Of a stretch of 53,622 nt of DNA, positions 16,759 through 51,077 are shown in pieces. Where the stretch lies: positions 62,001 through 115,622 of the forward strand of contig JALAGF010003973.1 in assembly GCA_030167865.1 (NCBI GenBank), read 5' to 3'. The notes under the pieces are model-generated. The model was not told the origin of the DNA, searched no databases, and saw only the letters and a list, made by a program, of their open reading frames with translations. Origin of the DNA: Craspedostauros australis (taxonomy: Eukaryota). The stretch's first letter is position 1. Every line of letters starts with the position of its first letter. A program made the translations under genes and the position numbers.

Positions 16759-18506
16759 TTACAAAAAGCGCGTGCTGTTGGCTCTCAAGTTGCCTCCGCT
16801 GAATGGAACGAAAGAGCTTGCGTCCGATGTCCAATTGTACTTGTTGAAAATCACCTTCACCTTCTTGCCGGAATTGATCATGACCTCCAAGTTCTGCTTC
16901 TTGAAATCTCGGAGGAATGGCAGGATGATGGGCAGGAGGTCGCTGGACTTGCCCGATGGGCCACAGAAGTCTTCCTTGTACCAGTTGAAGATCGAAGAGA
17001 GATGAACCTCCGAAGTCTCCGGATCGATCCGGACATTCGAGTCGTCCTCGCAAAATGCCTGCGCGATGATACGCAATTCTTCTTCGATGGACTCAGCGTG
17101 GAACGCCTTGACGGGTGGGCAAGAAGCTGCACCGCAATTCAACGCAAAGTGGATTCGATTATCGACGTGATCCACAGTGAGGCGGAGCCTATCGTCGTCG
17201 GCATGGAATTGTTTTTGCAGCGCGTACGGCGCTTTGCGGTTGTCGCGCAGAACGCCATTCTCCAGGTCTTGGAAGGAGAGGACGTCGAAACCGACCTGCA
17301 TCGAAACGTTGTTGAAGAAATTCAATCGTGAGCTGCCTGTTGTGCCGATGCCAACTTTCATGAAGGCGTACTTGATCATCAGGTTGTAAAGGTTGATGCA
17401 GAATGCCTGATGTTGAATGGTGTTGTATTGTAGAATATTGTATTGTATTGTGTGGTCGTATTGGATGTTGTTATGTAAAAAAAAAACACAGAATGTATGA
17501 GCATGTGTGAGAGATGAGGGATGAAGTATCGATATCACGATAGGCAGGAGTCGACGTCTCCACACACCCTGGTACTATGCTATACCATAGAATACAATTG
17601 GGTACTCACCAACTTGACGTTCTCCTTCATGTTCGCAATGACCACGCCTTGGAGCTCACAAACAGCCTCCTCGAAGGCAGGGTAGAGGGCGTGGTTCTTC
17701 GCCTGCTTGTAGTTGACCTTGCCTTCGTTGTCGGTCATGGCGCTCTCGATCTTCCCGAGCATTTTCTTGAGACGAAGGACGAGTCCAACCACATCGTCAT
17801 CCACGCGCTCGGTCCACTTGCGGTATGAGTTGAGGATGTTGGGTTGCTGGTCGCACTGCAACCGAAAGAAAAGCGCGTCAGTGTCCTCGACGAAGTGGTC
17901 TCCGACAACGTGATCCAGCATCGCGTGCTTCGTCTGCAAGGAGTACGCGAACGCTTCGGCGTCGCTCCTCGAGATATCGTACTCCGTCGCCAAGGCCTCG
18001 ATGCATTCGCTGCCTCGGAAGCAGCGCTTGTAGGTTTTGAAGCGGTACTTGAGGTCTCGGCGCGGCAAAATCTTTTTGAGCATCTCCATCATCTCCAGGA
18101 CGCTCGTCGTGCTGCCGTCCGGCAGTTGGATGCAATTGACATCTTCTCTCGGTGGCGGCGGAGACGGAGGGCTCTCTGGAGGGCTGCTTGGTGGTTCCAG
18201 GCGGGGATCTTGTGGGTCGTTGCCGCTGGCGACCAGAGATGCGTACACCTCCAGCGGACTCGTGGTTGGATTGCTCTCCCATTTCTCGATCATGCTGATG
18301 GTCTCCTCGGCACCTCCAACGTGCAGGTCGTTGAGGAACACCTGCGGCACCGTGAGTCGGTTGGAAACAGAGAGCATGTCCTGTCGTTTGGAAGGGTAGT
18401 CGGTGAGGTTGATCTCGGTGAACGGGATGTCCCACTTGCTCAGTGTGGTCTTCACCCGCTTGCAGAACCGGCAATCTTCCAGCGTAAAGATGGTGATGCG
18501 TCCCAT
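16759..18506 (-). CDS. Glutaredoxin + DEP + DUF547 domain protein; 2 exons
   Basis: Exons 18506-17610 and 17406-16759; intron 17609-17407 (GTGAGT...CAG) joins NVKL|AFCINLYN. Grx motifs CRFC, TVPQVF and VGG; DEP-like YKRCFRGSE...HVVGDHFVED..FFR; DUF547 AFCINLYN...DNRIHFALNCGAASCP and LSSIFNWYKEDF. Confidence 0.9.
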
Positions 18507-21123: not shown

Positions 21124-22974
21124 ATGTCTCATTCCAACAGTGAAGGATCAGATGGCAGACCGAACGACGTTGCCACGAGTGGAGACGAGAATCCACCCAG
21201 CATCAGCAACAGCAACAGCGACGGCATTAATGAACAGCGAGAAGTCGTCCCGACTCCGATCGCAAGCCAGTCCAACAAACCAAACCGAGTGAAGTTGTCA
21301 AAGCTGGGCAAGCACCATCCATCGCTTGAGTCGTCGCCACTGTTGTCAAATACGAGGGGACAGGCCGCATACGGAGGGCAAGGCTTCGCGACGGACAACG
21401 GCCAAACTAGGACGGGCGATACTTTGGCTTGGAACAGCGAGCACAGCCGCAGAGGCGTGGCGAGGCCACCACTGCCCGTGGTCGCGGAGTCAAGATCATC
21501 ATCTGGAATCCCTTCGATGAATCCGGATCTGCACTCGCAAGAAACGGAGCCGACAACGCAGGAAGCTCCACTGGCGCAGAGAGGAAAGGCGCTCTGGGGA
21601 CGGCTGAAGGAGCATGTCGACAAGGGAGAGTTTTTGTTGGGAGAGATTTCTGAAAGCAGGAACCACCGTCACCGTCAATCGTTGCATTGGGAGAGACAGC
21701 AGGAGATCCGTTCCGGGATGAATTTCTCTGTCGGCCAGTGTGTCATGGCAATCGCTGTCTACGAGGTCCTGTCCATCATTTTCTACTCTGAATTCCTCGA
21801 ACCGGAATGGACATTCATCGACAGCTCCTACTTCGCCGTCACAACTTTCACCACGGTTGGCTACGGCGATCTTGCGCCGACGACCAAGCTTTCCAAGCTG
21901 TTCACCTGTTTTTACGCCCTCACTGGCGTGGCGTGTCTCGGACTCGCCTTGGGAGTGATCGGCGGCAATCTGATCGAGAATCAAGTTGCTGTCGAGGAGG
22001 ATGCCGTGCAGCTCAACAAACTGCAGGCGATGACGCTCTTCGATTACAGCGTCACGAAGCAAACATCGAAACGCCAGCTATCCAGCACCGACAGGGACAT
22101 CAAAAGCAACGAGAATGCCGGCCATGACGACAAGCTGTGGCAGCAGGCGATGGATCGTACCCTGAGAAATACCGAACTGACCAGCACCGTGAGGCAGACC
22201 GCTCCGCACTCAAACCAGTCGTTCTCCTTCTGGACGTCCCACCGTAATCGTCGTTTTCTCGTGCTACTTGTTCCTCTCACTGTCATGGCCTACTTGATTG
22301 GCGCCGACGCTGACTGGGATTTCATTTCCACATTGTACTACCTGGTCGTGACCGCATGCACCATTGGATACGGCGACTTCACTCCAAAGACTCAGGGTGA
22401 CAAGATCATGGCCATCCTCTTCATCCCCCTCGCATGCGGAGTAGCGGGAGCATGGCTCAGCTTTGTGGCCAGCTACATCATCGAACAGCATTCCATGACA
22501 TTCCGCAAGACTATGCAGACAAAGGAGCTCTCTCTTGAGGATCTCTACATCATGGACGAGGACGGCGACGGCGATGTCACCAGAGCTGAATTTCTGGAGT
22601 TCATGCTCGTCGCGATGAACAAGATCGACGAAGATCTTGTCGACGAACTTCGTGAGTACTTCCATCGTCTCGATTGCAATGGATCTGGTGTCCTCAACAG
22701 ACAGTGCCTCGTCCATGAGGCAAGAAAGAAGCTACGACATCCTCGCCGCAAGCTCGAGCTGGCCATGTACAAGCAGAAGCTTCATGAGCAAGCCGAAACA
22801 GCAGATCTGCGCAATCGAAATCGTCCCCTTCGCGCAGGTATCTGGGAGGCCGTGACTTCGACAATGCGACGCTTTTCCTTCATCGATTCAACGATTCTAA
22901 GAGACTCGGAGCACGAGGAATTTCAAAATTTCGACAGCATGCACAGCAGATCGCAAGCTGTGCCCATCGCGTAG
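21124..22974 (+). CDS. Two-pore-domain K+ channel (TPK/KCO type) with C-terminal EF-hands
   Basis: Two pore loops (TFTTVGYGDL and TACTIGYGDF), 4 TM segments, EF-hand DEDGDGDVTRAEF and degenerate DCNGSGVLNRQC. Confidence 0.93.
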   Translation: MSHSNSEGSDGRPNDVATSGDENPPSISNSNSDGINEQREVVPTPIASQSNKPNRVKLSKLGKHHPSLESSPLLSNTRGQAAYGGQGFATDNGQTRTGDTLAWNSEHSRRGVARPPLPVVAESRSSSGIPSMNPDLHSQETEPTTQEAPLAQRGKALWGRLKEHVDKGEFLLGEISESRNHRHRQSLHWERQQEIRSGMNFSVGQCVMAIAVYEVLSIIFYSEFLEPEWTFIDSSYFAVTTFTTVGYGDLAPTTKLSKLFTCFYALTGVACLGLALGVIGGNLIENQVAVEEDAVQLNKLQAMTLFDYSVTKQTSKRQLSSTDRDIKSNENAGHDDKLWQQAMDRTLRNTELTSTVRQTAPHSNQSFSFWTSHRNRRFLVLLVPLTVMAYLIGADADWDFISTLYYLVVTACTIGYGDFTPKTQGDKIMAILFIPLACGVAGAWLSFVASYIIEQHSMTFRKTMQTKELSLEDLYIMDEDGDGDVTRAEFLEFMLVAMNKIDEDLVDELREYFHRLDCNGSGVLNRQCLVHEARKKLRHPRRKLELAMYKQKLHEQAETADLRNRNRPLRAGIWEAVTSTMRRFSFIDSTILRDSEHEEFQNFDSMHSRSQAVPIA

Positions 22975-23475: not shown

Positions 23476-25345
23476 TTAAAATTGAGCATGTTGCCGCCTG
23501 GCGATGCACCTACGTGCCACAGCCAGCGGACCTCCAGCACGCATCGAAAACTCTCGCAACTCGTCGTTGTCAATCTTGTCCTCGTAGTAGTCCGAAAAGT
23601 CATCCGAGCTGTAGTCGCTGTCGTCGCTCAGGTACGACATGTTCGAGACGTAAGTGACTGGAGGGGCTAGAAACGCGGGCCGAGGCTTTTGCGGCTGATG
23701 CTGGTGGACACGGCGGTGCTGAACCTTGCGCTGGAGTTGAGGCTGAGACTTGAATGGTAGCCGCTGCGAGCGTATTTGATACGTCGGAATAGCTGTGCTG
23801 GCTGTGCCGACGCCTGCACCCAGTCTGCCATCAGCCCTGATGCGTTCTGCGCCTCCGTAAAGCTCGTTATCGCCATCGCCATCGCCATCACTGTCGCTGT
23901 CGTATTCGTGGCTGTCGCTATCACTGTAGTAGCTGCCATCGCTGTCATTGTCGCTGTCACTATCGCTGAAAGAGTCATCATCGTAGTCCTCGCGTGATCT
24001 GGCATATGACCTGGCATACGTGCTGGCTCCTCGAGAGCTGTATGTAATGTACGATGTCGTGTCGCTGTCGGACTCATCAGCTAGACCTAGAATATCCTCG
24101 GGCGGGATCTGCCCATTCGACACCATCTTCGCCATGTGCATCGTCAGCGCACCGGGAGGATCGCGGATTGGCATCGAATGAGGCTTGCGTGCACAAAGCA
24201 ACGGTGGGAGCTCTTCACCTTCCACTGCCACGTCCCGACGTGGCCAGAAACGATCCATCTTCGATCGGAAGAAGTCGATGTACGCTGCGTAGTTCTCACG
24301 CCGGATGTAGGACAGCGGGGATGATCCGCGAGTGTCGAGGATGTTCACCAGGTCCCGGTCGCTGCCCAGAATCAGGGACAGAGTGTCGAAGGATGGTTGC
24401 GCCCTCCAGCAGGCATCGTGCAACGGTGTCTTGCCGAAGTCGTCCGTTACCTGAAGAGAACAGTCGAATCGCAGGAGGACCTGCAGGACCTTGTGATCAC
24501 CCTTGCGACACACCATGTGGACCAAAGACTCTCCGAAGGTGTTGCATGGGTTGGGTGATAGACCTGTGCTGAGGAGTTTCTGGAGGAGAACTGCATCCGA
24601 ATTGCAGACGGCGGCCTTGAGCACGCTTCCGTAGCTGGCCATCTGGTATTCGGTGGGTCTATTGAAGTAGGCGGTTTCCAGACTGCAGTACTTTCTGGTC
24701 GAGTACCCTCTCGCGGTGAGTTCCTTGTCAAGGAAAGCTTGAGGCGAGTCCAGGGATGCCTGTGATGCAAGGTTTGTGCGGTTGGTTGGTTGGGAGAGGG
24801 TACGAATGCATGTGGAGGAGAATGAGAACGAGTGTGAGATGAAAGGTTGGAGTGTGCTGTATGAGCTCTGGTATGCGATGCCATACTCTTGTACCTTGCA
24901 TGTGCTCATTGTGACTGCTCCACTCCACTTCACTCTACTCTACTTCACTCTACTCTACTCTACTCTATCAGAGTGGTGGCTTACGTACCTCTTTCTTGGT
25001 CTCCTTCCGCTTGCTCTTGATGGCCCTGCGACTAGCCTGTGCGGCTGTCTCGTGCTTCTGGAGTGTTGCGGTCGCAACAGAGGACTCGGCATCGCTCACG
25101 AAGCCATCGAAGGTCTTGGTGGCCACACCATTCTTCGGTGCTTCGACCACATCCTCGCCTTTCTGCGACCTGAGGAAGATCTTCTGCAGAGCAGCGGGGA
25201 TGCGAGGACCCCTTTTCCTGCGGTTGGAGTATTTGTGAGGGAAGACCTTGCTGCCCAGGCCTTCTGGTGGCTTGTCGACATCATGTCCTCTCTGGGCCAT
25301 GAGGAAGATCTTCTGCAGCGCCTTCGGAACGCGTGGGCCTCCCAT
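23476..25345 (-). CDS. Ankyrin-repeat protein (diatom-type) with acidic D/S-rich C-terminal region; probably 2 exons
   Basis: Ankyrin motifs NTFGESLVHMVCRKG, DDFGKTPLHDACW and DTRGSSPLSY. Probable exon 1 25345-24989 and intron 24988-24760 (GTACGT...CAG) join KKE|ASLDSPQ in frame. The start could extend to 25393. Confidence 0.8.
24919..24967. repeat. Degenerate pentamer repeat (CTCCA/CTTCA/CTCTA) in the predicted ankyrin-gene intron
   Basis: Direct reading. Confidence 0.75.
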
Positions 25346-26785: not shown

Positions 26786-29587
26786 CTACTGATCTGCATC
26801 ATCCTTGGAAAGCTGGCTGAGGCTTTGCTGAATGGCCCATTCCGCTGCGACTTCGGCGAACCCTACATCCTGCCCTCCTTCATCCGGTTGACCACCTATG
26901 TCTGTGCTAGCGGTATTGCTGGTGTCCAGCACATCATCAGATTCCATGGATTGATTGGCAGCATCAGGTCCGAGCAAGGCATCTCCCCGCAGTTGGGTCT
27001 GCTGAGCACCTCCAACGTGAGGCGGGGAAAGCGCGGAGTCTCGACTTGACAAAGTCTGCTGTTGCTGCTGCTGGGTCGGAAGTATCGTAGAGGACTCTTT
27101 TTCTCGTTGCGCTCGGGCCAAGGTGGATTGATTGCGGGCCTCCATCTTGGCGATTTGATTGGTAGTATCCTGTGCTTTACGGGTCAGCTGACGCTCCTGC
27201 ATGCCTCGGAGGGCTTCCACCAGCTGCTCCTCCTTGCCTTTGAACTCGAGCATCATCTCATCGATGTGGCTTGCTTCGTCCGGCACGACCTTCGTCACGA
27301 GATCTACAACCTCCTTTCGAATCTCTTCGCGGCTCCTTTTCACTGTCGGCGTGGTGCTTGCTGTGACGGAAGTATCGCCCGTGTTGGCTGCTGAATCAGA
27401 AAAGAGCGTAGATGGTGTCGTTCTGCCGGATTCATTGTCGATGGAGGCTGCGGGTTCGACGTTGGAATCCGTCTGCGACATTCTGGAATCCGCGTATGAT
27501 AATCTGGAATCCACCGACAGCCCATCCGCCGTGTCCATGCCCGTTCTGATCGACCGGATGCTTTGATCGTCGAACCTGGCAGCAGCGGCCACGATCCCTT
27601 CCCAATTGCCATCTTCGATCAAACGATCGAGTTCGTCGACCTTGTCGAAATCCAACTGCTTGCGCCACGAGCCGCCTCTCAAGGACGACACCTGACTGTA
27701 CGACGAGTACGAAGAATCCGAATCCATGATATGCTCCTGCGTGGCAAGGTACTGCGCTGAATGCCCGACGGCACCCCAATCGCCGTCCGCCAATGCGGTC
27801 TCCAACTCCACCATGTTCTGGATCTCGATTTGCTGGTTATCGGGGCTGCGGCCCGAGGCGTACAACGAAGTGCGATTCATGCCAACGATGACACCATCCG
27901 TCGCATCCATCCCGGTGACCTCAATGGAGTCGGTCGACGCCGGGTGCATGTCCGAGTATATGCTTCCCGTGTCAGACACACGCGTGAGACGAGGATCGTC
28001 GGAACGGCTCTGATGCGAACGAAAGGATGTGGTCGGGCTTTTCACAGGTGTGACGGCCATTTTCGCGACGTCGTCATCATCCTTGCGCTGGAATTCGAGT
28101 CCATCCTGCAGTGAGAAGAAATTGTCTTCCTGCGGTTGGGCCACTTCGAGGTCGTTGTATCCTTCATCGGTTTGCTTCGGTTTGAGCTTGAAGATGGCAA
28201 GGATCGCGAGGATGATGATGAGCACGCCCGCGATGATTCCGATGATCACGCCGAACGATATACCGTCGGATGAGTCGCTAGATGGTTCGTCAGCTGAATC
28301 CGTCTGCGGGGCGCTGGACGGTACGGCAGTTACGACCAGGACAGGAATGGTCGCGTTGACTTCCTCCAGAACTTCCTGAAATCTCCCATTGGCCATCGCT
28401 GCGTTCATGGCAGATTCGTAGAGCGCCTTCGCGACCTGCGGCCGTTCGTCATCGAGAATCAAGCCAATCAAGGCGGTCACATTTTGACATTGCAATGTCG
28501 TCGAGGACGTTGTTCCAGATGCGGATGTCGGACAGTCCACCTGTTCCGAAGCATCCTGGATGGTGGTCGCAGGGCTCCCATCGGCCGCGACCAATTCCGT
28601 CGGCAAATCCACCAGCACGGCCAAATGACGATTGCGCACGCGCATACGACTTTCTGATGGCCTGGTGAAGACGACCTCATTGACAACATCGGTTGCGAGG
28701 TCGTCCATCGCATCGATCAAATTCGATATCTGAATATCCGCGGGTGCCGTGTTTTCTGCCAGTTGTATTGTGTATTCAATCTGCACCTGCAGATCAACCT
28801 GGTGCGTCGGAGCATTTGTCGGCCCTGCTGCCTCAGGAGGTGGCGGTGGCGACGGCGTATCGGTCGGCTTCGCAGATTGCAACGCCATGGGATGCAGGCT
28901 CGGTGGGTCACTCTCAAATGCGGTGGGGATTGCGCTCGGCAGAGAAGATTCACTATTTGATGGTGCTTCAGATGGCGCGGATGATGGCATGAGTGATGGT
29001 GCCATCGTTGTCGTGTTCAACGATATTTGGGATGGAAAGAGCGACGATGAATTGTTGGGAGCCGCTGTTGGCTGCGCCGTCTGCGTCGAATTCGTATCGC
29101 CTCCACCATCCTCGATTGAATCGCTGTACTCCTCCAACGATTCTTCCGCCAACACGCAGACGTCGTTGAGGTAGGATAGCAGAGTCCCATCGGTTTCTTG
29201 TTCTTCAGGAAGCAGCGCCTTGATGTCGATGACCTGCGGCGATTCCGAGCCATTGAGGCAGCATGTATCGCAGAGGCATCCCACCAACCGGAAGTTATCA
29301 CGCAGAACTCCAGGAAGCTGATCGAACATCGTGGAGTTGACGAGGATGTCATCGTCGCCCAACAGAGTGACGAACGTGACGTACTCCTCACGATCGATGA
29401 GGAAGTTAGCATCGGCGTCGGCGTCCACGAGAGCCTGGTGACATGCATCGATGTCAGAGGTGTCCATGCGCCGTGCTGGATATCTTGCATCGTGGATTGT
29501 CCCGCGTGCGCCGGCGATGGTGGACGATGTCACGATGAGGATCCCCATCGTCATCCACGCTGTGCGCCAACACTGCGCAAGCAGCAT
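26786..29587 (-). CDS. Type I single-pass membrane protein of unrecognised family, paralog A (single exon)
   Basis: Signal-peptide-like MLLAQCWRTAWMTMGILIVTSSTIAG; Cys-rich domain with EF-hand-like DADANFLIDREEY; P/S/T stalk; RHL motif; TM FGVIIGIIAGVLIIILAILAIF followed by KLKPK; cytosolic GDWGAVG and GNWEGIVAAAARFD, VVPDE..IDEMMLEFKGKEEQLVEALRGMQER, AAEWAIQQSLSQL. Confidence 0.85.
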   Translation of the reverse strand: MLLAQCWRTAWMTMGILIVTSSTIAGARGTIHDARYPARRMDTSDIDACHQALVDADADANFLIDREEYVTFVTLLGDDDILVNSTMFDQLPGVLRDNFRLVGCLCDTCCLNGSESPQVIDIKALLPEEQETDGTLLSYLNDVCVLAEESLEEYSDSIEDGGGDTNSTQTAQPTAAPNNSSSLFPSQISLNTTTMAPSLMPSSAPSEAPSNSESSLPSAIPTAFESDPPSLHPMALQSAKPTDTPSPPPPPEAAGPTNAPTHQVDLQVQIEYTIQLAENTAPADIQISNLIDAMDDLATDVVNEVVFTRPSESRMRVRNRHLAVLVDLPTELVAADGSPATTIQDASEQVDCPTSASGTTSSTTLQCQNVTALIGLILDDERPQVAKALYESAMNAAMANGRFQEVLEEVNATIPVLVVTAVPSSAPQTDSADEPSSDSSDGISFGVIIGIIAGVLIIILAILAIFKLKPKQTDEGYNDLEVAQPQEDNFFSLQDGLEFQRKDDDDVAKMAVTPVKSPTTSFRSHQSRSDDPRLTRVSDTGSIYSDMHPASTDSIEVTGMDATDGVIVGMNRTSLYASGRSPDNQQIEIQNMVELETALADGDWGAVGHSAQYLATQEHIMDSDSSYSSYSQVSSLRGGSWRKQLDFDKVDELDRLIEDGNWEGIVAAAARFDDQSIRSIRTGMDTADGLSVDSRLSYADSRMSQTDSNVEPAASIDNESGRTTPSTLFSDSAANTGDTSVTASTTPTVKRSREEIRKEVVDLVTKVVPDEASHIDEMMLEFKGKEEQLVEALRGMQERQLTRKAQDTTNQIAKMEARNQSTLARAQREKESSTILPTQQQQQQTLSSRDSALSPPHVGGAQQTQLRGDALLGPDAANQSMESDDVLDTSNTASTDIGGQPDEGGQDVGFAEVAAEWAIQQSLSQLSKDDADQ

Positions 29588-30730
29588 GATTTCTTGCGAG
29601 CGCTGTTGCGGTTCTCTTTTGTCTCTGCGCACTCGTATCCGTGTGTGGGAGGCCAACCACACGAACGCTTCGCTCGTACGAGTATTGGTGTGGTACGATC
29701 TATTATACCAGCACGAGCCTTCGCCTTTTGCGCGCAACCGTATCCAAAGGTGGGGACTGTCCTGATGGAGTATCGCAGAGCCCCTTCCTGGATGCAGCTC
29801 AGCGCGATGCAATGCAATTTGATGCACAGTGCTGTGATGCAGTGGGCTTGTAATATATTCTATGAAGGAGTGCCGTAGCGATTGATGTCGTCGTCGTCTC
29901 TCACTTCGGGAGAATGGGGTTGTGGCACGACGATCGTGTTGTTGTGAATGGAGATGGCGACCCGTGTTGTGCACAACGAGGTCTTGGCCCCCAAAAAGCA
30001 GGGGCCACCAGGAGCCGCGCAGATCCATTCCGAGTCGCCACACAAATCGTGGGTTGCACCTGCGCATTTCGTCACGTTTCGAGACAGCCGTCTGCGCCTG
30101 CTCATGTGCAACGTGTCGCACCTGTCCATTGGCGCCACAATTTCCCGCACGACCAAACAACGAAGCCATCACATCACAAAATCATCGCGCGATCGACAAC
30201 TGAACGAATCAACTCACCCAAGACAGAACACACGCAACACAAAACACGCAACACGCGCAAAGCGTCTGCATCGTATTATACTTGCACAAGTGAACAACGA
30301 TGACGGTCACGGCCACGGTGGCAGCGGCGGCGACGGAGCAAGACATGATTGAAACTTTCACCGCGATACGACTGCACGTACTCGTATCAGAGCAAGTCTC
30401 AAACAGCGAAAGGCGGCGGACTACTCGTGCTCGTGCGAACAGAAGGGAGTCCCCACTCATACGGGTGTGCACGTACGGCGGAGCACTCCACTCCGTGCGT
30501 TTGGCTTGGTTCGCACTTCAGTGAGTAGCAGGATCAACCTGGCTCTTCAATTCGGCAGGGCATGGCACTCGTGTCGGCAGAACATTCTAAAAACGACATA
30601 CTCATACAGTCGTACAGCAGTTCATCTTGATTGTGCAGTGCTGATGGTACTCTAGACATTAAGGAACGGCCACAGTTGACCGAAGACAAGCACGTTGAAG
30701 TCGTGCGCCGCGCATCCAATTGGTTGGACT

Positions 30731-33700
30731 TTACACTTCGTCTTCATGGTTACTTCCTCGCTTCTCTGATGGAGGTCGACTTCGGGAGAAGGAATCTCTC
30801 AATTGGCCCGTGCCTTCTGCTTGCACGAGTGCGCTCAAACTGCGATCGATGGCCCATGTAGCAGCGTTGCTGGCTCCGGCGTCTATGGAATACGAAAGGG
30901 ACGGCGAATGGGAGGAGCATCAAATGACATTGGCAATTACAAGTCCAAGTCGACAAGAGGAAAATGTAGAAAAGTGATCAGTCCAAGATCAACATTGTTA
31001 GTCACACAAAGGCAAGAATGAATAGAGTTTGGCACTGGCATTGGGATATGGCACAAAAGACGATCCTGTGACTATGTGGTGTCATGAACAGCACGTGGCA
31101 CATCACAACACAACAAGCAACCACACTCACTCTCTGAATCCTCGGTATCAGTTTTTGTCTGCTCTGCGATGGCACTCCAAATATCAGCCTGCGCAAAGGC
31201 TTCCTCTTCCTCCTGCAGTCTCTTGAGGCGTCTTGCTCTCTTCTCGTCCACAGTCTCTTCCTTGTCCGCCTCGGGCTTCTTCACAGCTCCTGCCCATCCT
31301 CCATCATTGCCAGCGTCCGGTTCTGTCGTGCTCGATCCTGTGGAATTGGAGTTGTCTTCGCTGCTGAAGCCAGCGTCGTTCTCGATTCTGGCGACGCCTG
31401 CAGCACCGGTATCCCAGTCACCAGCATCGATCGGCGCAGCATATCTGCTCGAGATTGTGCTGTCGTTGGTTGCGCTGCGGTCACCTGCCCTGCGCTCGTC
31501 CTGCCCGTCCGCAGGAACGAAGGCGACAGAGCTGCTGTTGATGGAAGAGGCCATGGATGCGACCGTACCACTGCTTGAGCTTGGGTTGACAGGATCGGTC
31601 TTGTCTTCTATCGCGGATCGTGCGGCGCGCTTGGCCTGTTTGTGTCCTGCAAGCCGAGCTCTCTTTGCAACCTCGCGCTCATGCATCGTTCTCAGCGTCT
31701 CTAACAATTCCTCCTCGCGGCCCTTGAACTGGACCATCATCTCGTCGATGTTGTCGACTTCCTCCGGCACGACACGTTTGACAAGCGTGGTGATTTCGGC
31801 GCGATACTCGGATCGGCGCTTGGCCTTCGAGTCGGTGGTTCCCCGTGAATCGTTCGTATTGAGGGTGCTGCCTGCGATAGACGTCCCGGCGAACGACGTT
31901 GAGGGCACTGTGCCCGATCCCGTCGATTCGACGCCTGAGCCCGACCCGACAGACACGGACGATTGCGATGCATTCGCCGCGTGGGAGCTCAGCAGATTCG
32001 TTCGATTCTCCTCCGCATCAAATCGAGCCGCCGCGGAAACGACGGCCTCCCAATCACCTGCTGCCACGAGGCGATCGAGCTCGGCCGCCCTGTTGGCGTC
32101 AATGACCTTGGATTTGACGGGGGAATCGGTTGAGTATCCGCCACCAGATGACATGGACTCGGTGGATCTCGATGCCAGCAGCGCCGCAGTGACGCCGACG
32201 GCCGCCCAATCTCCACGGTGCATGGCCTGGTCGAGTTCGGAGAAGGCGGTAGCAATCTCGTCGCCATCCTCCTCATCGCCGCTGCGAGATGCTGAGCTCA
32301 TGCTGCGGTTGGCGTACTCAGTTGGGAGGGACGAGGCAGCGAGCATTCTAGCTTGCGTGGTTCCGCCACGCTTCGAATCTGCGTCTCTCAGCATGTTCTC
32401 CACGTCGTCGCTCGTGTGGCTGCTTTCATCGACGGAGGAAAGTCCATCTCGCGAGGACCATCCGGAGGACCCCGCTGAGGCTGACTCGTGGTCGTTATAC
32501 CGTCCGGCTGCGCCGGTAGCGATCGCGGCAGCCGAGATGCGCGATACGTTTCCTGTGCTGCCAGGCGTCATGTAGGTTCTGTCCGGAGATGATGGCTCCG
32601 GCGTCGAAATGCCTTGTTCCTCGTCGGATGTGCCGGTGTCCATCATATGGATGGGTCCCTCCGAGGTTTCGAGGGCAAGATGATCCTCCTCGGCTAGTTC
32701 GTAAGATCTCTTGTCCTCGTAGCTCTCGCTGCTGACGTCCTGGGTTCCGCGGCGTACAAGGAAGAAGGACACCAAACCCACCAGCAGCAATCCGGCAGCA
32801 ACGAAGCCAACAATTGGACCAGCACCGATGGGCTCTGAGGAATTGCCAGTTCCCGTCGACCGGTTCGTGCCTCCGCTAAAGGCAGATTCATCGAGGATTC
32901 TGATTGGAGTGTTAGGGTTGATTCCCAGCAAGATGGTTTGCATATCGCCGCTGTTGACCGCTTCGGTCGCTCCCTTCTCCATGGTTGTCTGGGTCGCTGC
33001 TGCGTCTTCATCCGTGACGGAAATCCCAATCGATGCCGACACCTCCTCGCAGCTATCGTTCTCTGAAATTGATTCCGGGCAGTCTGTTGTGTCATATGTG
33101 GTGTGCACGTGCACAAGTATGAGGGAGTCGCCAAGGTGTGGTTTCCATGTAGGTGGGTGTGAGAGGACGCGCGTGGCGAAGTGCTTGATCATGATTGAAA
33201 AGTGGCACGTTCACAAGCCACCATGTTCCGACGACGCAGGGCATGTGCGTACTCGTACATATCACGGCTGATGCTTGACACGGTGATACAATCAGACGCA
33301 GAGAAGGCGCTCACACACAATCCAGCCTCGATTCAAGAAGGGAAGCACGTTGGTAGCACGTTGATAGCACGCTCGCACTTACCCTGTCGGACGACACCAC
33401 TGACAGAAGACTGCTCCACCGTCACCTGCAGGCGACGTCGGCTGCTGCCTTCGTTGAGAGCATTAGTGAGATCTGCTGCGTACTGATCCAGACTTGCTTC
33501 GATGTCTGGAATGTACTGGTTTCTCGTGTACGTTTGCGTCGTTCCATTCTCCAACGAGATCAAGAATTTAACCGAGGCAATGGCATCAGGCGGAAGTTCT
33601 GTCGGCACTTGCGTTGGTCCCGGTGTCGTTGTTGGCTGCGCCGATGGCGATTCTGACGGTTGATTCGTGGGCTGTGCTGTCAGCGTCGGGTTGGAGCTCG

Positions 33701-34853
33701 GCGGTTCCGATGGAGTTGCAGTCGGCATGCTGGATTCGGTTGGCGACACTGACGCCGTGATCGTTGGCGACGATGTGGGCGTCGATGATGGTGCAACGGA
33801 AGGCGACGCGCTGGGTGATCCGGTCGGTTGGCTCGATGGGGTTTCCGAAGGCGATCCCGTTGGCGTTGCCGTCGGACTGCTCGTGGTTGTTGGAGGTGCC
33901 GATCCAAGAGACGATGGTCGATGGGATGGAACCGATGACGGTGCCGATGTTGGTGCTGCACTCTCCAGGACGGTGGGAAGATCGGACGCGGCAGCCGTCG
34001 GCGATGAGGTGGGCAGGGACGTAGGGACACTCGTTGGCGTATCTGTGGGGGATCCGGTTCTCGTTGCTGTTGGGGCGCTGGTTGGAGGCGCAGTTGGGGC
34101 GTCAGAAGCCATGGAGGACGGAGCTGAGGTGGGCACCAGGGTTGGCTGCGCGGTTGGTGCGCTGGTTGGGGCGCCCGTTGGTGCCGATGTGGGCGACGTG
34201 CTCGGGTGCATCGTGGGCGCCGGGGAATTGGCTGCCAAGTTGACCGAAGCCTGCGACAGCTCGCAGACGGTGTCCAAGTAGTTGTCCTGGTCCCTCGTCC
34301 GGACTTCTCCCGGAAAGGCTCCGAGGTTGGAGATAAAGCGCACTCCGGAACCGCAACAGCCAAGGCCGTCATACGACAGACACAGACATGACAGGAGCTC
34401 GAAGTTGTTTCTGAGGCCACTGGGGAGCTCGCTGAAGAACTCGATGCCCCTGGCAAAGTCGTCGGGTCCCAAGATCTGGACGAACGTGACGTAGTCGCTC
34501 TCCACCATCTTGCGGTCTCCATTTCTGTCGGCAAAGAACAGAGCGTCGAGGCAATCCTGCTTCTGCTTGTCAACGGCCTCTAGTTCCTGGGACCTCGTTG
34601 TGTTCGCAATACTGTTGACTGTGACCTCTTCGATGTCATCTTCAGAACCTTGGGTGCCTTCCATCGCTCTGTTCGCTTGTCTGCTCGTTGTCATGCTCGT
34701 TGCCATGCTCGTCGATCCTCCTGCAGCGGCCATCTCGGCCGCGAATGATGGCGCTTCCTGTGCGTTGGCTTGTGCCTGCGCGTTTGCGTACGCGGCTGTG
34801 ATCTGAGTCGCGATGAGCATCGCCGCAACGCCGAACCTCGCATTGGTGCTCAT
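30731..34853 (-). CDS. Type I single-pass membrane protein of unrecognised family, paralog B (3 exons)
   Basis: Exons 34853-33383, 33083-31131 and 30882-30731; introns 33382-33084 (GTAAGT..CAG) and 31130-30883 (GTGAGT..TAG) splice in frame. Exon 3 (NAATWAIDRSLSAL...HEDEV*) matches the paralog A C-terminus. Signal-like MSTNARFGVAAMLIATQITAAYANA (alternative ATG 34940); long PT/PS repeats; RRRL; TM PIVGFVAAGLLLVGLVSFFLV followed by RR. Confidence 0.85.
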
Positions 34854-35433
34854 GGATGAAGCTCTTGATGCGGCAGCGCTGTCCCCGTTGCGTTCGGTCT
34901 TTGCATTCTTGGCGCGAGGTGGAGTTTTCGCGGAAGCCATCTTTGAAATGTGGCCTTTTTCGTCCAGCGCGATCGAGTATAGTGGATGCTGCGTACGAAT
35001 GCCAGGAGCCTCTGCACAACCTGTTGGAGTCACAGCTGTGATGGAGGTGTTATCAGCGATGCCAGTGGTGCCTGTGCTCGTGTAACGTCTTGTTTGCACG
35101 GTGTGTCTCCGTGGATGTTCCGACAGGAGTGTTTCTTGCTGAGCACGATCTGTGGTGGGTGGTATCCGTCTTGCACGGCTGCGAGGGTGGCAGACGGAAG
35201 CTTCCCAACCAAGACTGTTCTCCCTGCTCTATCGGTGTTCGCCTGCGTTTACGACCCACTGATACTTCTGCGCAGTCGTTCTTGCTGGTGACGATGGCTC
35301 GAAGCGTTCTCTCTGTTGCTCTGCAAGGACTTCGCTCCCACGAACGTTGCCTGATGCTCGAGGAGCAAATTGCGATTTGTGATGGGTGGCCGAGTTGGTG
35401 CTTTGGAACTCGAGTGCAAGACCTTGATACCGA

Positions 35434-48397: not shown

Positions 48398-51077
48398 TTA
48401 GCTTACGCTGACAGTCTCTGGATCCACGAGGATGAGCTGCCCCGATCTGGCTTCCGCTGTGTAGAGCTCCACACCAAGCGCATTTGCGAACTTGAGCGGG
48501 ACTTTGCGCTCCTTTGGGGATGTCGTCAGGTTGATGACAACGCCAGGTCTCCCTCCGCGACCGCATCGCCCTGCTCTGTGGGCGTAGTGAGAGGCATCTG
48601 TCGGCAAGTCCATGTTGATCACGTGCGTCAACAAGGGCGCATCAAGACCTCGAGCCGCGAGCTCAGTGGCGACGACAACACCGACGTACCCTTCCCGCAA
48701 GGCTCTGCTCACTTCGGCACGATCCATCTTGTCACTTCCAACTCCACCGTGCAGTGCCGCGGCCAGAATGCCCATGCCTCCAAGCCGTTCGACGACGATG
48801 TCCACCTTCCGGGCATTCTCGACGAAGATGAGAATTTGCTGCGGAACTGGCTCGGTGTGCAGTATCCTCCGCACAGTGGAAAGAGACAATCGACGGTGGG
48901 GCACATGAACAACTCCATGCATCACCGTTCTGCTCACTCTTGGTGCATTCTTGCCTCCATCGGATTTCGTCACCAGCATGTCATCCTGATCCGCCATGGC
49001 CTCGACGTATCCCGGCCTCAAGAACTCTTTCACCTTGGACGAACCCACAAGGTCCGATGCTGTGGCGGAACACCAGATCGACTGCAACGCATCACCATGT
49101 CTGCGACGGAGATGCTGCATGATTGCTTGGGTGGGATCTCTGTGGGGCTTGTATTCCAACAATGCATCAAATTCATCCATGACCAAGGCTCGCAAGTCGC
49201 CGATCTTGAGTCGACCAGACCTGAGGCACATCGTTGCAAGCGTGAAAATGGCAGAAAAAGAATTGATAGAAAGAAGGCAAACAGTGATAGAAAATAGTGC
49301 ATGTGGGTTCCGTTTGTGAGCACGCAGGTATTCATTGGTCACCAATGTGGAGAGCACGGTACGAGTACAGAAGATGTGGGAGCGGCATCATCTCTGCCCA
49401 TTCGTGTCTTTGGCGAGTGATTCATGGCAAGGAACTAGATGAATCCAACTCAGTTCAGCCCAGTTCAGCCCAGTTCAGCTCAGCCCAGCCCAGTTCATCT
49501 CGACTTGATTCAATCAAGAAAATAGAGTAAGCGAGCAAAATCAATAAAAATCCACCGAATGCCCACATGTGCCAATGCAAACCATCCACCTGACTGCCAC
49601 GGTAGCAAGCACAGTCGTTGCGTGAGATCTTCGCTGCACAACACAGCACTTACTTTTCGCCCGGTTTGCCCACGACAAGTTCAGCAACTCTTCCAGGAGT
49701 TCCAACCAGGATGTTCGGCTTTCGTTTTCGGATCTGCTCCAGATTCCTGGTGAAGGTCGTGCCTCCGATGGAGAGCTGAACTATCAGTCCAGTATCGGCG
49801 ATGAGCTGACGCGCAACGCTGGCAATCTGACTCGCCAGCTCTCGGCCTGGAGCAATAATCAACAACGAAACTCCCATTCTGCGTGGGTCCTCGTCGTTCT
49901 CTTCGATATCTGCGAGTAGTCGCTGTACGAATGGAGTCAGAAATGCCAGGGTCTTGCCACTGCCTGTGTAGGTTCCCACCAAGACATCCTTTCCTTCGAC
50001 AGCCGGCGGCACGGCCTTTTCTTGGACAGCAAGAGGCGAGGGGCATTCCATCTCTTCCAGGTTTTCCAAAAGACGTTCGTGTGTCACCCCAGCATCCTCC
50101 CAACTCAACGATGGTCGGAGGGATGAAGAAGCGATGAGCGGCGAGTCCAAATCCATCCAGTCCGAATCTTCGTCCATCTCAACTTCTTCGCCGTCGTCAA
50201 CCAAAGACGATTGGAAACGGTACATCGCTTCATCCACGGTCAACAGCACTGTATCACCTTCCTCATCCAGAACGGGCATGGCTGGTGGCGGTTTGACGCG
50301 TTTTTGTGGCTTGGCGATGGCACCACCCTCTTCTTGTTCACTCGCGGCCAGTTCTTCGAGTGTGGAAGCATATCGCATCGCGTTCGCTTCTTGTTGCTTC
50401 CTCTCGTTCTCTCGTTGGGTAGCAGCTCTGTTGGCATTCGCTGATGGGTTAAAGAAAAAGCCCGGAGTTTTGGGGGCTGTGTCAAATGACCCATCGTCGT
50501 ACGTGTCATCGACGCCAGATCCGTCGCCCTCCCACTCGATCTCTTCGAGTACCTCGTCGTCCTTGTCGTAAAACTCTCTCTGATCGTCGCCCTCGGGTGG
50601 CTTCTTCCCATCATCCTTGGTCCAAGGATCAAACACAGGCCTTCGCAGGTTGAGCGTAGCGGGCGTGTCGTCCTTGCGTTGGCTCTTCTTTTTGCTTCTC
50701 TTTGCGGGCTTCGCACCATCATCTGCAAGTCCGAAGTCCATCTCAAAGGCGCCATCAGCAGGCGAGGAGAATTTCCCCCAGCGTTCCACCATGGAAGACT
50801 CGAGATCATCAATGGACTTGCCGGACTCCCATGCCTCCGGTACCTTGTTGGCCTTCTTCTTGTTCTTGTTTCCATACGATGATCTCGATTTCTTCCCCTT
50901 CTTGTTATGCACTTTCTGCGAGAATCGGGGACCTTTGTTGGGGTTGCCCAGCGCGAAGAGCTGGGTTGGTTTCTGCCAGAAGGAGACATGCCCAATGACT
51001 GCAAAGGAGTGCGTGCATGATGGCAGCAGGGCAACTCCGATGGTGCAGAGCACCAAGATATCCCGTGTGGTGTGCAT
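48398..51077 (-). CDS. DEAD-box RNA helicase (DEFD variant) with bipartite plastid-targeting leader; 2 exons
   Basis: Exons 51077-49654 and 49220-48398; intron 49653-49221 (GTAAGT..CAG). Q-motif PLAVQEKA, TGSGKT, PGRELASQ, GTPGR, DEFD, SAT, ARGLD, HRAGRCGR. Signal peptide ending THS-FAV (Phe at +1) followed by a basic transit-like region. Confidence 0.92.
49451..49497. repeat. (CAGTTCAGCC)n repeat in the helicase intron
   Basis: Direct reading. Confidence 0.8.

Follow-up and report, generated by a model that had tools for sequence, protein, structure and literature searches.

Two adjoining minus-strand genes of Craspedostauros australis, gene A (26786-29587) and gene B (30731-34853), encode members of a large, so far unnamed family. 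They were analysed within a stretch of 53,622 nucleotides, which is referred to as the window. The family is apparently pan-diatom and, among the labelled matches, diatom-restricted. With moderate confidence, we regard A and B as type I diatom membrane glycoproteins that couple the wall or matrix side to the cytoplasm, as anchor or sensor, and the most likely function that we infer is a Ca-dependent, protease-processed link between wall matrix and cytoplasm. The membrane concerned may be the plasma membrane or the silicalemma.

The gene pair and its family

The ordered modules listed in Table 1 are common to A and B. By BLASTP, the two proteins align over 214 columns of the N-terminal domain with 33% identity (E 2e-22), and over 340 columns from the juxtamembrane domain to the tail with 32% identity (E 3e-30). 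The same-strand adjacent pair with shared module order, proposed by the initial annotation, is therefore borne out at its coordinates, and so is the different intron content (none in A, two in B). Gene A has a probable ATG at 29587 and a stop ending at 26786, and the complete transcriptome ORFs P0004 and P0005 align with it over its full length, at 38% identity and 99% coverage. Both introns of gene B are GT-AG introns. Removal of intron 1 restores the conserved ...VVRQ/DCPES... (slash at the junction), and the homologue P0010 is colinear with the spliced 1191-aa protein over both junctions (769 columns, 58% identity); an alternative upstream ATG for exon 1 lies at 34940. The predicted masses are 100 kDa (A) and 124 kDa (B). 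No third copy was found in the window by tblastn.

Table 1. Coordinates in the window of the features of genes A and B.
Gene	Feature	Residues	Position	Strand	Basis
A	CDS, intronless, 933 aa + stop		26786..29587	-	ORF, start choice, transcript ORF alignment
A	N-terminal hydrophobic segment, probable signal peptide	1-29	29501..29587	-	hydropathy; AF2 helix 2-24
A	Head, six-Cys helical domain with one putative EF-hand	41-160	29108..29467	-	AF2, Cys columns
A	EF-hand loop DADANFLIDREE	57-68	29384..29419	-	family alignment
A	P/S/T/A stalk	161-262	28802..29107	-	P+S+T 51%, one Lys; AF2 pLDDT <50
A	Juxtamembrane beta-alpha-beta-beta-alpha-beta domain	263-421	28325..28801	-	AF2
A	RXL, R320-H321-L322, loop before strand beta2	320-322	28622..28630	-	family alignment
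A	TM helix	444-467	28187..28258	-	hydropathy peak 3.42; AF2 helix 445-467
A	GDW hairpin 1	586-620	27728..27832	-	AF2 helices 586-600, 604-620
A	GDW/GNW hairpin 2	647-681	27545..27649	-	AF2 helices 647-658, 662-681
A	Three-helix block VVP(D/E)E..IDEMM..F.G.EE.L.E.LR.M.ER	753-832	27092..27331	-	AF2 pLDDT 88-96
A	C-terminal helix AAEWAIQQSLSQL	911-930	26798..26857	-	AF2 helix 911-930
B	Exon 1: signal-like segment, EF-hand head, long PT stalk, juxtamembrane domain first half		33383..34853	-	
B	EF-hand loop DRNGDRKMVESD		34494..34529	-	aligned to family EF-hand loop (row P0002)
B	RXL, RRL within SSRRRLQVT		33429..33437	-	aligned to RRKL of P0010
B	Intron 1, 299 nt, GTAAGT...ACAG, phase 1		33084..33382	-	
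B	Exon 2: juxtamembrane domain remainder, TM helix, GDW hairpins, three-helix block		31131..33083	-	
B	TM helix		32752-32820	-	
B	GDW hairpins		32170-32250, 32014-32094, degenerate third 31381-31449	-	
B	Three-helix block		31612-31815	-	
B	Intron 2, 248 nt, GTGAGT...ATAG, phase 1		30883..31130	-	junction colinear with P0010
B	Exon 3: C-terminal AATWAIDRSLSAL helix motif + stop		30731..30882	-	

In a midpoint-rooted tree of 82 members, A groups with P0004/P0005 and B with P0010, both with support 1.0, and the last common ancestor of A and B is the root of the tree. The old duplication suggested earlier is upheld by this tree, and the sequences support A and B as two anciently diverged paralogues.

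The profile search gave 1632 representative clusters at E<=1e-3, 802 at E<=1e-10 and 285 at E<=1e-30. About 8% of the listed matches (the best 120 of 165 and the best 120 of 310) carry organism labels. All 19 of these are diatoms, from four classes that extend from radial centrics to raphid pennates, and the broad non-diatom distribution named beforehand as weakening a silica or adhesion link has not a single instance among them. Pfam yielded no family at its cut-off except the PT repeat, and the view that the pair belongs to no named family agrees with the Pfam, PDB sequence and Foldseek searches. Of the 154 locally analysed proteins, 153 contain the three-helix block and the hairpins, 120 have a TM helix and 50 have the EF-hand head; 29 combine head, juxtamembrane domain, TM helix and tail in the full architecture. 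The juxtamembrane domain was detected in 126 of 240 proteins with an improved HMM.

The distribution also bears on a possible part in gliding. Many matches come from raphid pennates (Nitzschia, Cylindrotheca, Seminavis and Epithemia), and a sticky glycosylated ectodomain, a TM helix and a long tail would suit a transmembrane linker of the raphid adhesion and motility complex, from the mucilage strands to the actin-myosin under the raphe. However, the full architecture is also present in the raphe-less Attheya (P0019), Dactyliosolen (P0021), Grammatophora (P0009), Thalassiothrix (P0256) and Ditylum (P0241). The occurrence of the family in non-gliding centric and araphid diatoms argues against a raphe-specific or gliding-adhesion role, and no myosin- or actin-binding motif was recognised by the Pfam and PDB sequence searches. 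Such a linker is thus considered highly improbable.

The ectodomain and the RXL motif

The N-termini of A and B are hydrophobic, with Kyte-Doolittle 10-residue means of 2.06 and 2.15, respectively, and a comparable stretch is present in 33 of 44 family members versus 14 of 150 control segments. The putative signal peptide that had been read into them is consistent with these values. As signal peptides, both segments are only moderately hydrophobic.

The Cys-rich domain described before does contain six conserved cysteines, and its identity is corrected here to a putative calcium-binding domain of the EF-hand type. The cysteines occupy conserved alignment columns with the spacing C..(54)..C.C..CC..(33)..C, and AF2 models the gene A head with four helices, mostly at pLDDT >90. 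Positions 1, 3, 5, 9 and 12 of the gene A loop are D, D, N, D and E, and the canonical ligand pattern is kept in 44 of 51 aligned family rows. A strict EF-hand pattern of the PROSITE type matched 25 of 50 heads, and outside the head it matched none of these 50 proteins; A and B each depart from it at a single loop position (F at position 6 and V at position 9, respectively). No Pfam EF-hand model reached its cut-off among the 63 family proteins scanned, the matches in P0026, P0093 and P0255 being below threshold. The PDB profile search returned a swarm of weak calmodulin matches at the EF-hand place of the head, and Foldseek returned CDPK1 and GCAP-1 (probability 0.47-0.72) with no match at E<=0.001. 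Some members are named “EF-hand domain-containing protein” or “Calmodulin” in the databases. Sequence pattern and predicted model together portray the head as a helical domain with six cysteines, centred on a single canonical EF-hand calcium loop.

The P/S/T stalk was confirmed by composition in both proteins, with a P+S+T content of 66% in B, where the Pfam PT repeat also matches (E 1.8e-11). The ectodomains are acidic and nearly lysine-free (pI about 4.1; 3 Lys in A and 5 in B). They contain no silaffin-type KXXK motifs and no lysine clusters, and serine reaches at most 9-10 per 23 residues.

The juxtamembrane domain comprises about 160 residues, and that of gene A, modelled alone by AF2, has pLDDT 84.9 and pTM 0.80. 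Foldseek found no match for it in the PDB at E<=0.001. As neither domain has a match at this level, the fold assignments of the head and the juxtamembrane domain are topology-level only, and the predicted topology of the latter is ferredoxin-like alpha/beta. The RXL motif lies in the alpha1-beta2 loop in 46 of 51 aligned rows, a conservation that rules out a chance tripeptide. In the alignment A3, R320 is kept in 47 of 50 rows and L322 in 44 of 50; of the occupied rows, 66 of 76 keep C352 and 68 of 69 keep C367, so that the RXL followed by DCP...C..V(T/S)A.IG holds as originally described. The placement of the motif differs from that in Sin1 and the SAPs, being inside the folded juxtamembrane domain and not directly behind the signal peptide. 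Its usual family form is multibasic, RRRL or RRKL, and the loop has low confidence in both AF2 models and is exposed by its predicted position.

Could the proteins be strictly silicalemmal, belonging to the membrane of the silica deposition vesicle? In that case the RXL-cut head and stalk would enter the biosilica-associated organic matrix, and the tail would use the cytoskeleton to position the vesicle or its contents, in line with the proposals made for SAPs and Sin1. The available parts of the published accounts describe RXL in diatoms so far for biosilica-associated proteins (Tesson et al., 2017, PMC5647440), proteolytic processing with anchor loss for SAP3 (PMC5647440), RXL processing and cleavage of the luminal part from the membrane anchor for Sin1 (Kotzsch et al., 2017, PMC5525289), and PT repeats among Si-responsive, SiMat7-co-expressed genes (Brembu et al., 2017, PMC5501833). 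The labelled matches, all diatoms of four classes, point the same way. However, the ectodomains have neither KXXK motifs nor more than a few lysines, and their serine content falls short of the TpSAP1 run, where, in the portion of the account available, 18 of 23 residues are Ser (PMC5647440). In addition, the RXL of the SAPs is described there as directly behind the signal peptide (PMC5647440) in contrast to its position in A and B, and no family member was recognised by description in the available parts of the silica-proteome literature. Consequently, a strictly silicalemmal function appears possible but rather doubtful.

The cytosolic tail and the proposed role

Hydropathy gives one strong TM helix per protein, as had been annotated, and the predicted topology is type I. 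The long cytosolic tail with conserved blocks is likewise found in both proteins; the tails are acidic, with 466 aa in A and 590 aa in B. Across the family, the tail carries 2-4 copies of an “(E)LD.LI..GDW..V..AAA” hairpin, the three-helix block and a terminal “AA.WAI.RSL” helix, the last in 82 of 154 proteins, joined by Ser-rich linkers that are predicted to be disordered. Hairpins 1 and 2 of gene A show repeat homology (hhalign probability 95%), and the family columns D, L, G, W and AAA of hairpin 2 are nearly invariant. The AF2 pLDDT exceeds 85 in the head, juxtamembrane domain, hairpins and three-helix block. The first conserved tail block of the family, a Ser-rich motif, comes about 70 residues past the TM helix. 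Ahead of it, the first 30 residues past the helix contain no conserved residue, and no more than three scattered columns attain 60%. A YxxPhi-like motif, YNDL, lies past the helix in A and P0004. No solved relatives of the tail were found in the PDB sequence search.

In the proposed link, the head, facing the lumen or the outside of the cell, would bind Ca2+ and attach to a Ca2+-dependent organic wall matrix, with the stalk, presumably O-glycosylated, as a spacer. A secretory-pathway protease would cut at the RXL; since the cut would fall inside a beta-sheet domain, the head fragment could either stay on the membrane stub or go free into the wall. The helical tail modules would serve as docking sites for cytosolic partners, with probable phosphorylation of the Ser-rich linkers. 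A role at the silica deposition vesicle or in adhesive mucilage, as initially suggested, remains a conjecture drawn from the RXL and the diatom-only distribution.

The same layout might suit an extracellular Ca2+ or wall-integrity sensor, by analogy with Wsc1/Mid2 and SEA mucins, in which the head would register Ca2+ outside the cell or strain in the matrix, and the signal would be relayed by the phosphorylatable tail. A single canonical EF-hand exposed on a stalk, a putative cleavable domain beside the membrane, a long acidic Ser-rich tail with the family consensus block SS.AGSSGWSS, and a Pfam Mid2 (PF04478) match over the TM region (E 0.0013) would be in keeping with it. However, the Mid2 match is sub-threshold (19 bits vs. 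the 23.2 cut-off) and confined to the TM and low-complexity part, neither Pfam nor the listed Foldseek matches revealed a SEA domain, and no kinase, GEF-binding or other signalling domain was found in the tail by Pfam and PDB sequence searches. Seawater contains about 10 mM Ca2+, at which a canonical EF-hand would be saturated and therefore a poor sensor. A dedicated sensor is accordingly thought improbable.

Sorting receptors, too, typically bind in the lumen through Ca2+-dependent domains and have long tails to which adaptors bind, and the YNDL past the TM helix would fit a secretory receptor whose luminal head binds cargo in a Ca2+-dependent manner and whose hairpins bind coats or adaptors. 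However, this motif is kept neither in B nor in the family consensus, neither a mucin-like stalk nor an RXL cut is known from sorting receptors, and the very large, diverse family suggests structural or surface roles; we give this explanation very little credence. The Ca-dependent link between wall matrix and cytoplasm is preferred here.

Comparison with known systems

SEA mucins of the MUC1 type have a globular or glycosylated head on a P/S/T stalk, followed by an internally cleaved ferredoxin-like juxtamembrane domain, one TM helix and a cytosolic tail, and A and B resemble them in this layout and in the beta-alpha-beta-beta-alpha-beta domain beside the membrane. However, the autocatalytic SEA cut falls between G and SVVV (G/SVVV), between beta2 and beta3, whereas the putative cut in A and B is at a multibasic RXL in the alpha1-beta2 loop and would therefore need a protease. 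Yeast Wsc1/Mid2, with a wall-contacting head, a glycosylated Ser/Thr stalk, a single TM helix and a partner-recruiting tail, are also alike in layout, but their head and tail domains are unrelated. The EC domain of SPARC/BM-40 has an extracellular, disulfide-stabilised EF-hand, and frustulins are Ca2+-binding, acidic and Cys-rich. Both are like the A/B head as acidic, disulfide-bonded, non-cytosolic Ca2+-binding domains, the frustulins by description only. The A/B head differs from SPARC/BM-40 in its single canonical loop and its own six-Cys pattern, and no match to SPARC was obtained with it by PDB profile search or Foldseek.

Identity with SAPs, silicanins or silaffins was considered and rejected, as their defining features are lacking in A and B; the SAPs were compared by description only. 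In the available parts of their description, SAP1-3 are type I proteins of 17-40 kDa in which a signal peptide, RXL motifs and low-complexity sequence on the luminal side are joined through a single TM helix to a conserved element in the cytosol, which apart from the size is also the plan of A and B (Tesson et al., 2017, PMC5647440). The same description gives the SAPs dense serine runs and a short tail, with a conserved block of 28 residues immediately behind the TM helix (PMC5647440), whereas A and B are larger, lack both the run and a block in that place, and are set apart from the SAPs so described by the EF-hand head and the GDW-hairpin tail. As far as the available text of Kotzsch et al. 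(2017, PMC5525289) describes it, Sin1 has 426 aa, its RXL adjoins the signal peptide, its NQ-rich domain holds 18 Cys, and it carries the heptapeptide GGQKFAL and a cytosolic domain of 20 residues; A and B differ by their far longer tails, 8 Cys and 8-9% N+Q, and GGQKFAL is absent from both. Judged from the same portions, the Silicanin-1/SiMat7-like family nevertheless shares with A and B a conserved, diatom-only type I organisation with RXL and a disulfide-bonded luminal fold (PMC5525289, PMC5501833).

Gene models and relationship of the two genes

Gene A (intronless) and gene B (two introns) lie side by side on the reverse strand, and their gene models, together with the count of 0 versus 2 introns in the initial annotation, are borne out by homology. 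The likely start codon of gene A aligns with residue 1 of the complete transcript ORFs of two homologous family proteins, P0004 and P0005, which span 99% of protein A at 38% identity. Upstream of this codon the frame remains open for a further stretch without counterpart in P0004 and P0005, which looks like 5' UTR at the sequence level. The spliced protein B (1191 residues) is colinear with another family protein, P0010, at 58% identity over 769 alignment columns, and the models are supported because this alignment crosses both exon junctions unbroken and reaches the common C-terminus. Two ORFs run antisense within the exons of gene B and probably owe their existence to the compositional bias of the coding strand. 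The coordinates are listed in the table.

Coordinates of genes A and B and of the other ORFs mentioned in the text (positions in the window)
Feature	Position	Strand	Length	Remarks
Gene A	26786-29587	-	933 aa	single ORF; ATG at 29587 (MLLAQCW...) is the likely start
Open frame upstream of gene A	29588-30169	-	194 codons	
Gene B, exon 1	34853-33383	-		begins MSTNARFGVAAMLIA...; upstream ATG at 34940 also possible
Gene B, intron 1		-	299 nt	GTAAGT...CAG
Gene B, exon 2	33083-31131	-		
Gene B, intron 2		-	248 nt	GTGAGT...TAG
Gene B, exon 3	30882-30731	-		
Antisense ORF in gene B exons	31169-32575	+	468 aa	
Antisense ORF in gene B exons	33727-34281	+	184 aa	
Glutaredoxin-DEP ORF	17583-18506	-		
K+ channel ORF	21124-22971	+		
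Ankyrin-repeat ORF	23479-24909	-	477 aa	
Helicase ORFs	48401-51077	-		two adjacent ORFs

It had been proposed that the two proteins share one order of modules and descend from an old duplication, and both proposals held. In BLASTP comparisons, the N-terminal domains of A and B are 33% identical (E 2e-22), and the region extending from the juxtamembrane domain to the end of the alignment in the tail is 32% identical (E 3e-30). Both have the same cysteine pattern, with six in the head and a pair close to the membrane, and each protein has a single strong hydrophobic helix (444-467 in A, about 579-601 in B). The two genes are thus related beyond chance. A FastTree phylogeny of 82 family members, computed from 230 conserved columns and midpoint-rooted, places A with P0004 and P0005 and B with P0010, both with support of 1.0; the lineages of A and B meet only at its root. 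Because their common node is at the midpoint root, A and B are, as judged from their sequences, anciently diverged paralogues and not recent tandem duplicates, and they appear to stand in tandem by chance. No third copy was found in the window by tblastn.

The neighbours in the window are ordinary nuclear genes, encoding a WD40 protein, a kinase, mitochondrial carriers, an FAD monooxygenase, an LRR protein, a glutaredoxin-DEP protein, a K+ channel with EF-hands, an ankyrin-repeat protein, a GHMP kinase, AAA ATPases and a DEAD helicase, and there is no sign of a functional cluster among them. One ORF has a glutaredoxin domain at its N-terminus and a DEP domain besides, an unusual combination, and the channel ORF encodes a K+ channel domain of the two-pore type (Ion_trans_2, E 2.5e-32) followed by C-terminal EF-hands. 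One helicase is spread over two adjacent ORFs, with its DEAD half in one and its Helicase_C half in the other, presumably a single gene split by an intron. Immediately downstream of gene A, and in the same orientation, comes the ankyrin-repeat ORF (Pfam Ank_2, E 7e-9). Ankyrin proteins of the cytosol are reported to take part in diatom pore patterning (PMC9894196); the adjacency may be a coincidence.

Domain architecture

An AlphaFold2 model of protein A, built on an alignment of 84 sequences, contains five confidently folded parts connected by disordered linkers. The first part is the head (41-160), with four helices and pLDDT mostly above 90, in which a loop of 12 residues between helices 43-56 and 66-76 completes an EF-hand. 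As the criterion for an EF-hand, we used a 12-residue loop with acidic or polar residues at positions 1, 3, 5 and 12, a hydrophobic residue at position 8, and flanking helices. The ligand pattern is satisfied in 44/51 aligned heads, the loop being DADANFLIDREE in A and DRNGDRKMVESD in B: position 1 is D in 46/51, position 3 is D or N in 44/51, position 5 is D or N in 46/51 and position 12 is E in 44/51, while position 8 is L, V, I or M in all 51. A strict EF-hand pattern of the PROSITE type occurs in 25/50 heads and nowhere else in those proteins; it misses A owing to F at position 6 and B owing to V at position 9. The Pfam EF-hand models have no match in A or B, and their best matches, in three other members, stay below the cut-off: EF-hand_1 in P0026 (23.2 vs 25.4), EF-hand_5 in P0093 (17.8 vs 25.9) and EF-hand_8 in P0255 (17 vs 28). 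A profile search of the PDB gave many weak calmodulin matches at this site (E 0.05-1.4), and Foldseek with the full model of A pointed to CDPK1 and GCAP-1 (probability 0.47-0.72), with no match at E<=0.001. Two database sources name family members “EF-hand domain-containing protein” and “Calmodulin”.

The initial annotation described the head as a Cys-rich domain. Its six cysteines are indeed conserved, kept in 44-54 of 47-55 occupied rows of the family alignment; its identity as an EF-hand domain had been overlooked. Based on the loop pattern, the modelled helices, the weak Pfam, PDB and Foldseek signals and the conserved cysteines, the head is a disulfide-braced single EF-hand domain with predicted Ca2+ binding. 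The rest of the earlier structural reading mostly stands. The stalk was annotated as rich in P, S and T. These residues account for 51% of it in A, where it has 1 lysine, and for 66% in B, where it has 0, and it is disordered in the model of A.

The juxtamembrane domain of A (263-421), modelled alone from 51 sequences (pLDDT 84.9, pTM 0.80), has the predicted topology beta1-alpha1-loop-beta2-(small hairpin)-beta3-alpha2-beta4. A Foldseek search of this model against the PDB yielded 0 matches at E<=0.001, and the top rows shown were generic ferredoxin-like folds with query TM-scores of at most 0.28, i.e., M20 peptidase dimerisation domains, uS10, CutA1 and a designed ferredoxin. The RXL motif is located in a low-confidence loop directly before beta2, and it is found at this position in 46/51 aligned sequences, usually in a multibasic form (RRRL or RRKL), with R kept in 47/50 rows and L in 44/50. 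The cysteine pair of CP...C is kept in 66/76 and 68/69 rows, which agrees with the annotated order of RXL followed by DCP...C. By its motif, the family can be placed in the functional class, as distinct from a homology family, of RXL-bearing diatom secretory proteins, with cleavage predicted.

Both proteins have a predicted type I layout, with a signal-like N-terminus and, as annotated, one TM helix. In the alignment of the family, the first 30 residues after this helix contain no column conserved at 60% or more, and the first conserved block of the tail begins about 70 residues past the helix, preceded by three isolated conserved columns. The tail of A is acidic (net charge -40) and contains two helical hairpins, the GDW hairpins, which hhalign identifies as copies of a single repeat (probability 95%, E 3.4e-8), as well as a three-helix block modelled with pLDDT 88-96 and a terminal helix. 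Many members have extra hairpins after the three-helix block, which are degenerate in B, and the cytosolic SS.AGSSGWSS block of the family consensus is plainly recognisable in B and degenerate in A. A search of PDB sequences with a tail-only profile gave 0 matches at E<=10, and the ESM Atlas gave no usable structural match for the tails of A and B.

Size and distribution of the family

A word-indexed search retrieved 5 relatives only, because the low-complexity stalk swamped the selection of candidates. A HMMER profile made from six sequences was then compared with 1.84 billion representative proteins. The number of matching clusters was 1632 at a threshold of E<=1e-3, falling to 802 at E<=1e-10 and to 285 at E<=1e-30. 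The family comprises at least 1632 clusters at 50% identity. Local sub-profiles were used to count the modules in 154 proteins (A and 153 other homologues). The three-helix block and the GDW hairpins are each present in 153/154, the TM helix in 120/154, the C-terminal “AA.WAI.RSL” helix in 82/154, the juxtamembrane domain in 63/154 and the EF-hand head in 50/154, and all four main modules occur together in 29/154; these counts are lower bounds, because many shorter entries are gene-prediction fragments. With an improved model, the juxtamembrane domain was found in 126/240 proteins, likewise a lower bound.

Among the best 120 of 165 and the best 120 of 310 matches listed, all 19 with an organism label (19/19) are from diatoms; most rows bear no label, and weaker members outside the diatoms may exist. 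The 19 are from Nitzschia inconspicua (2), Bacillariaceae MAGs (3), Cylindrotheca (3), Epithemia, Seminavis, Pseudo-nitzschia arenysensis, Grammatophora oceanica, Thalassiothrix antarctica, Odontella aurita, Ditylum brightwellii, Attheya (2), Dactyliosolen fragilissimus and Stephanocyclus meneghinianus, and one more match bears a CCRYP_ identifier, which presumably denotes Cyclotella cryptica. The labelled members thus span radial centrics, polar centrics, araphid pennates and raphid pennates, and none of the same 240 listed matches (best 120 of 165, best 120 of 310) is labelled as from Thalassiosira pseudonana or Phaeodactylum tricornutum. The adhesion side of the silica or adhesion link that had been suggested for the pair, and gliding with it, is opposed by this distribution, for members with the full architecture occur in the raphe-less Attheya, Dactyliosolen, Grammatophora and Thalassiothrix.

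The earlier statement that no named family fits was confirmed. At the Pfam cut-offs, nothing was detected in A, B or 60 further members except PT, a repeat of the disordered stalk, and a PDB sequence search with the whole-family profile gave no significant match, only low-complexity, TM and weak EF-hand ones. The precomputed Pfam annotation of the homologues gives PF04886, plus PF27998 for one protein, and the latter was not reproduced by our own scan. Full-text searches of the literature outside subscription journals and preprint supplements found papers on SAPs, Sin1, SiMat7-like proteins and proteomes, none of which describes this family, and the motif strings of the tail led to no relevant paper. 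The family is very large, extends across the diatoms and is as yet uncharacterised.

Across the family, the cytosolic tail is constant and the ectodomains are variable. For example, a sub-type represented by P0007 (Nitzschia inconspicua IV203_021225) and P0008 (an MMETSP transcript) lacks the EF-hand head and opens with a juxtamembrane-type domain, with RXL in 1/4 sub-type rows, which is separated from the TM helix by a long Gly/Asp/Glu-rich stalk. P0244 from Seminavis robusta is named “Cohesin domain” at its source, and P0035 carries the precomputed Pfam PF27998.1; our own Pfam scan of these two proteins found neither a cohesin domain nor PF27998.1. They may mark further ectodomain types on the same tail.

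Possible role and comparison with known families

To build their walls, diatoms are believed to depend on proteins that span the membrane and relay information between the cytoskeleton and the matrix in which the wall forms. To our knowledge, the known membrane-spanning families here are two small ones, the SAPs and the silicanins, neither with a substantial cytosolic domain. The present family is much larger and pan-diatom. Its cytosolic tail is large and conserved, with a structure defined by modelling, and to this are added an EF-hand on the extracellular or luminal side and a predicted protease site, also conserved, inside a folded juxtamembrane domain. The three modules specific to the family, namely the juxtamembrane domain, the GDW hairpin and the three-helix block, matched no Pfam model or solved structure. 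Candidates and domain boundaries are now defined for experiments, and database entries named “EF-hand domain-containing protein”, “Calmodulin” and “Cohesin domain” come together as one membrane-protein family.

Our confidence is evenly balanced on whether the family acts as a general linker from the wall or matrix side to the cytoplasm, placed in either the plasma membrane or the silicalemma. In such a linker, the most likely of the readings, the head would bind Ca2+ outside the cytosol and engage an acidic, Ca2+-bridged organic matrix, the stalk would be a glycosylated spacer, and the tail modules would dock cytosolic proteins. A protease of the secretory pathway would cut the RXL loop and part beta1-alpha1 from the rest of one sheet; therefore, the head could stay non-covalently attached or be shed into the wall. 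The cleavage step is plausible in diatoms, since RXL processing with loss of the membrane anchor is documented for Sin1 (PMC5525289) and SAP3 (PMC5647440).

A bolder version, which we hold to be quite improbable as a whole, makes the family the general coupler across the membrane in the morphogenesis of diatom walls. The EF-hand head would lock onto the Ca2+-bridged matrix of the silica deposition vesicle or the cell surface, and the cut in the juxtamembrane sheet would leave a joint that is non-covalent and sensitive to force, so that the SEA/GPS principle would have arisen here independently. The GDW-hairpin tail would be a new docking module tying this joint to the cytoskeleton. If so, the paralogues, hundreds in each lineage, would supply positional diversity to wall patterning. 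If the function is mundane, such as that of a generic surface glycoprotein, the value would lie mainly in annotation.

The proposed linker follows the same logic as the SEA-domain mucins. A SEA homologue was considered for the juxtamembrane domain and dropped: A and B have no Pfam match to SEA, no SEA domain is among the listed Foldseek matches, of which none reaches E<=0.001, and the conserved site is RXL, not the autocatalytic G|S motif (GSVVV). Consequently, with no homology found, the SEA mucins serve as an analogy only.

The families of diatom wall proteins are compared here by their published defining features. SAPs are proteins of 17-40 kDa with a short tail, a conserved block of 28 residues directly after the TM helix and a Ser-rich luminal segment, e.g., 18 Ser in 23 residues in TpSAP1 (PMC5647440). 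SAPs, compared by this description only, share with A and B the type I layout with a single TM helix; however, A and B are of 100 and 124 kDa with tails of 466 and 590 residues, lack a conserved block directly after the helix, and have at most 9 and 10 Ser, respectively, per 23-residue window of the ectodomain, the stalk being rich in Pro, Thr, Ser and Ala. Sin1 has 426 residues, a cytosolic domain of about 20 residues, an NQ-rich luminal domain with 18 Cys and a conserved GGQKFAL before the TM helix (PMC5525289). In contrast to the short tail of Sin1 and the SiMat7-like proteins, those of A and B are some hundreds of residues long, N and Q make up 8-9% of their ectodomains, which contain 8 Cys, and GGQKFAL is absent. 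Silaffin-like and cingulin-like proteins are recognised by KXXK repeats (X = S or G) or pentalysine clusters (PMC5501833), whereas A and B have 0 KXXK and 0 windows of 14 residues with at least 5 Lys. Since these distinguishing features are absent, A and B lie outside the SAPs, the silicanins and the silaffin type. That the family consists of silicalemma proteins in the strict sense seems unlikely to us. With these families, A and B have the general design alone in common: a type I layout, an RXL motif and occurrence, as far as members are labelled, in diatoms only.
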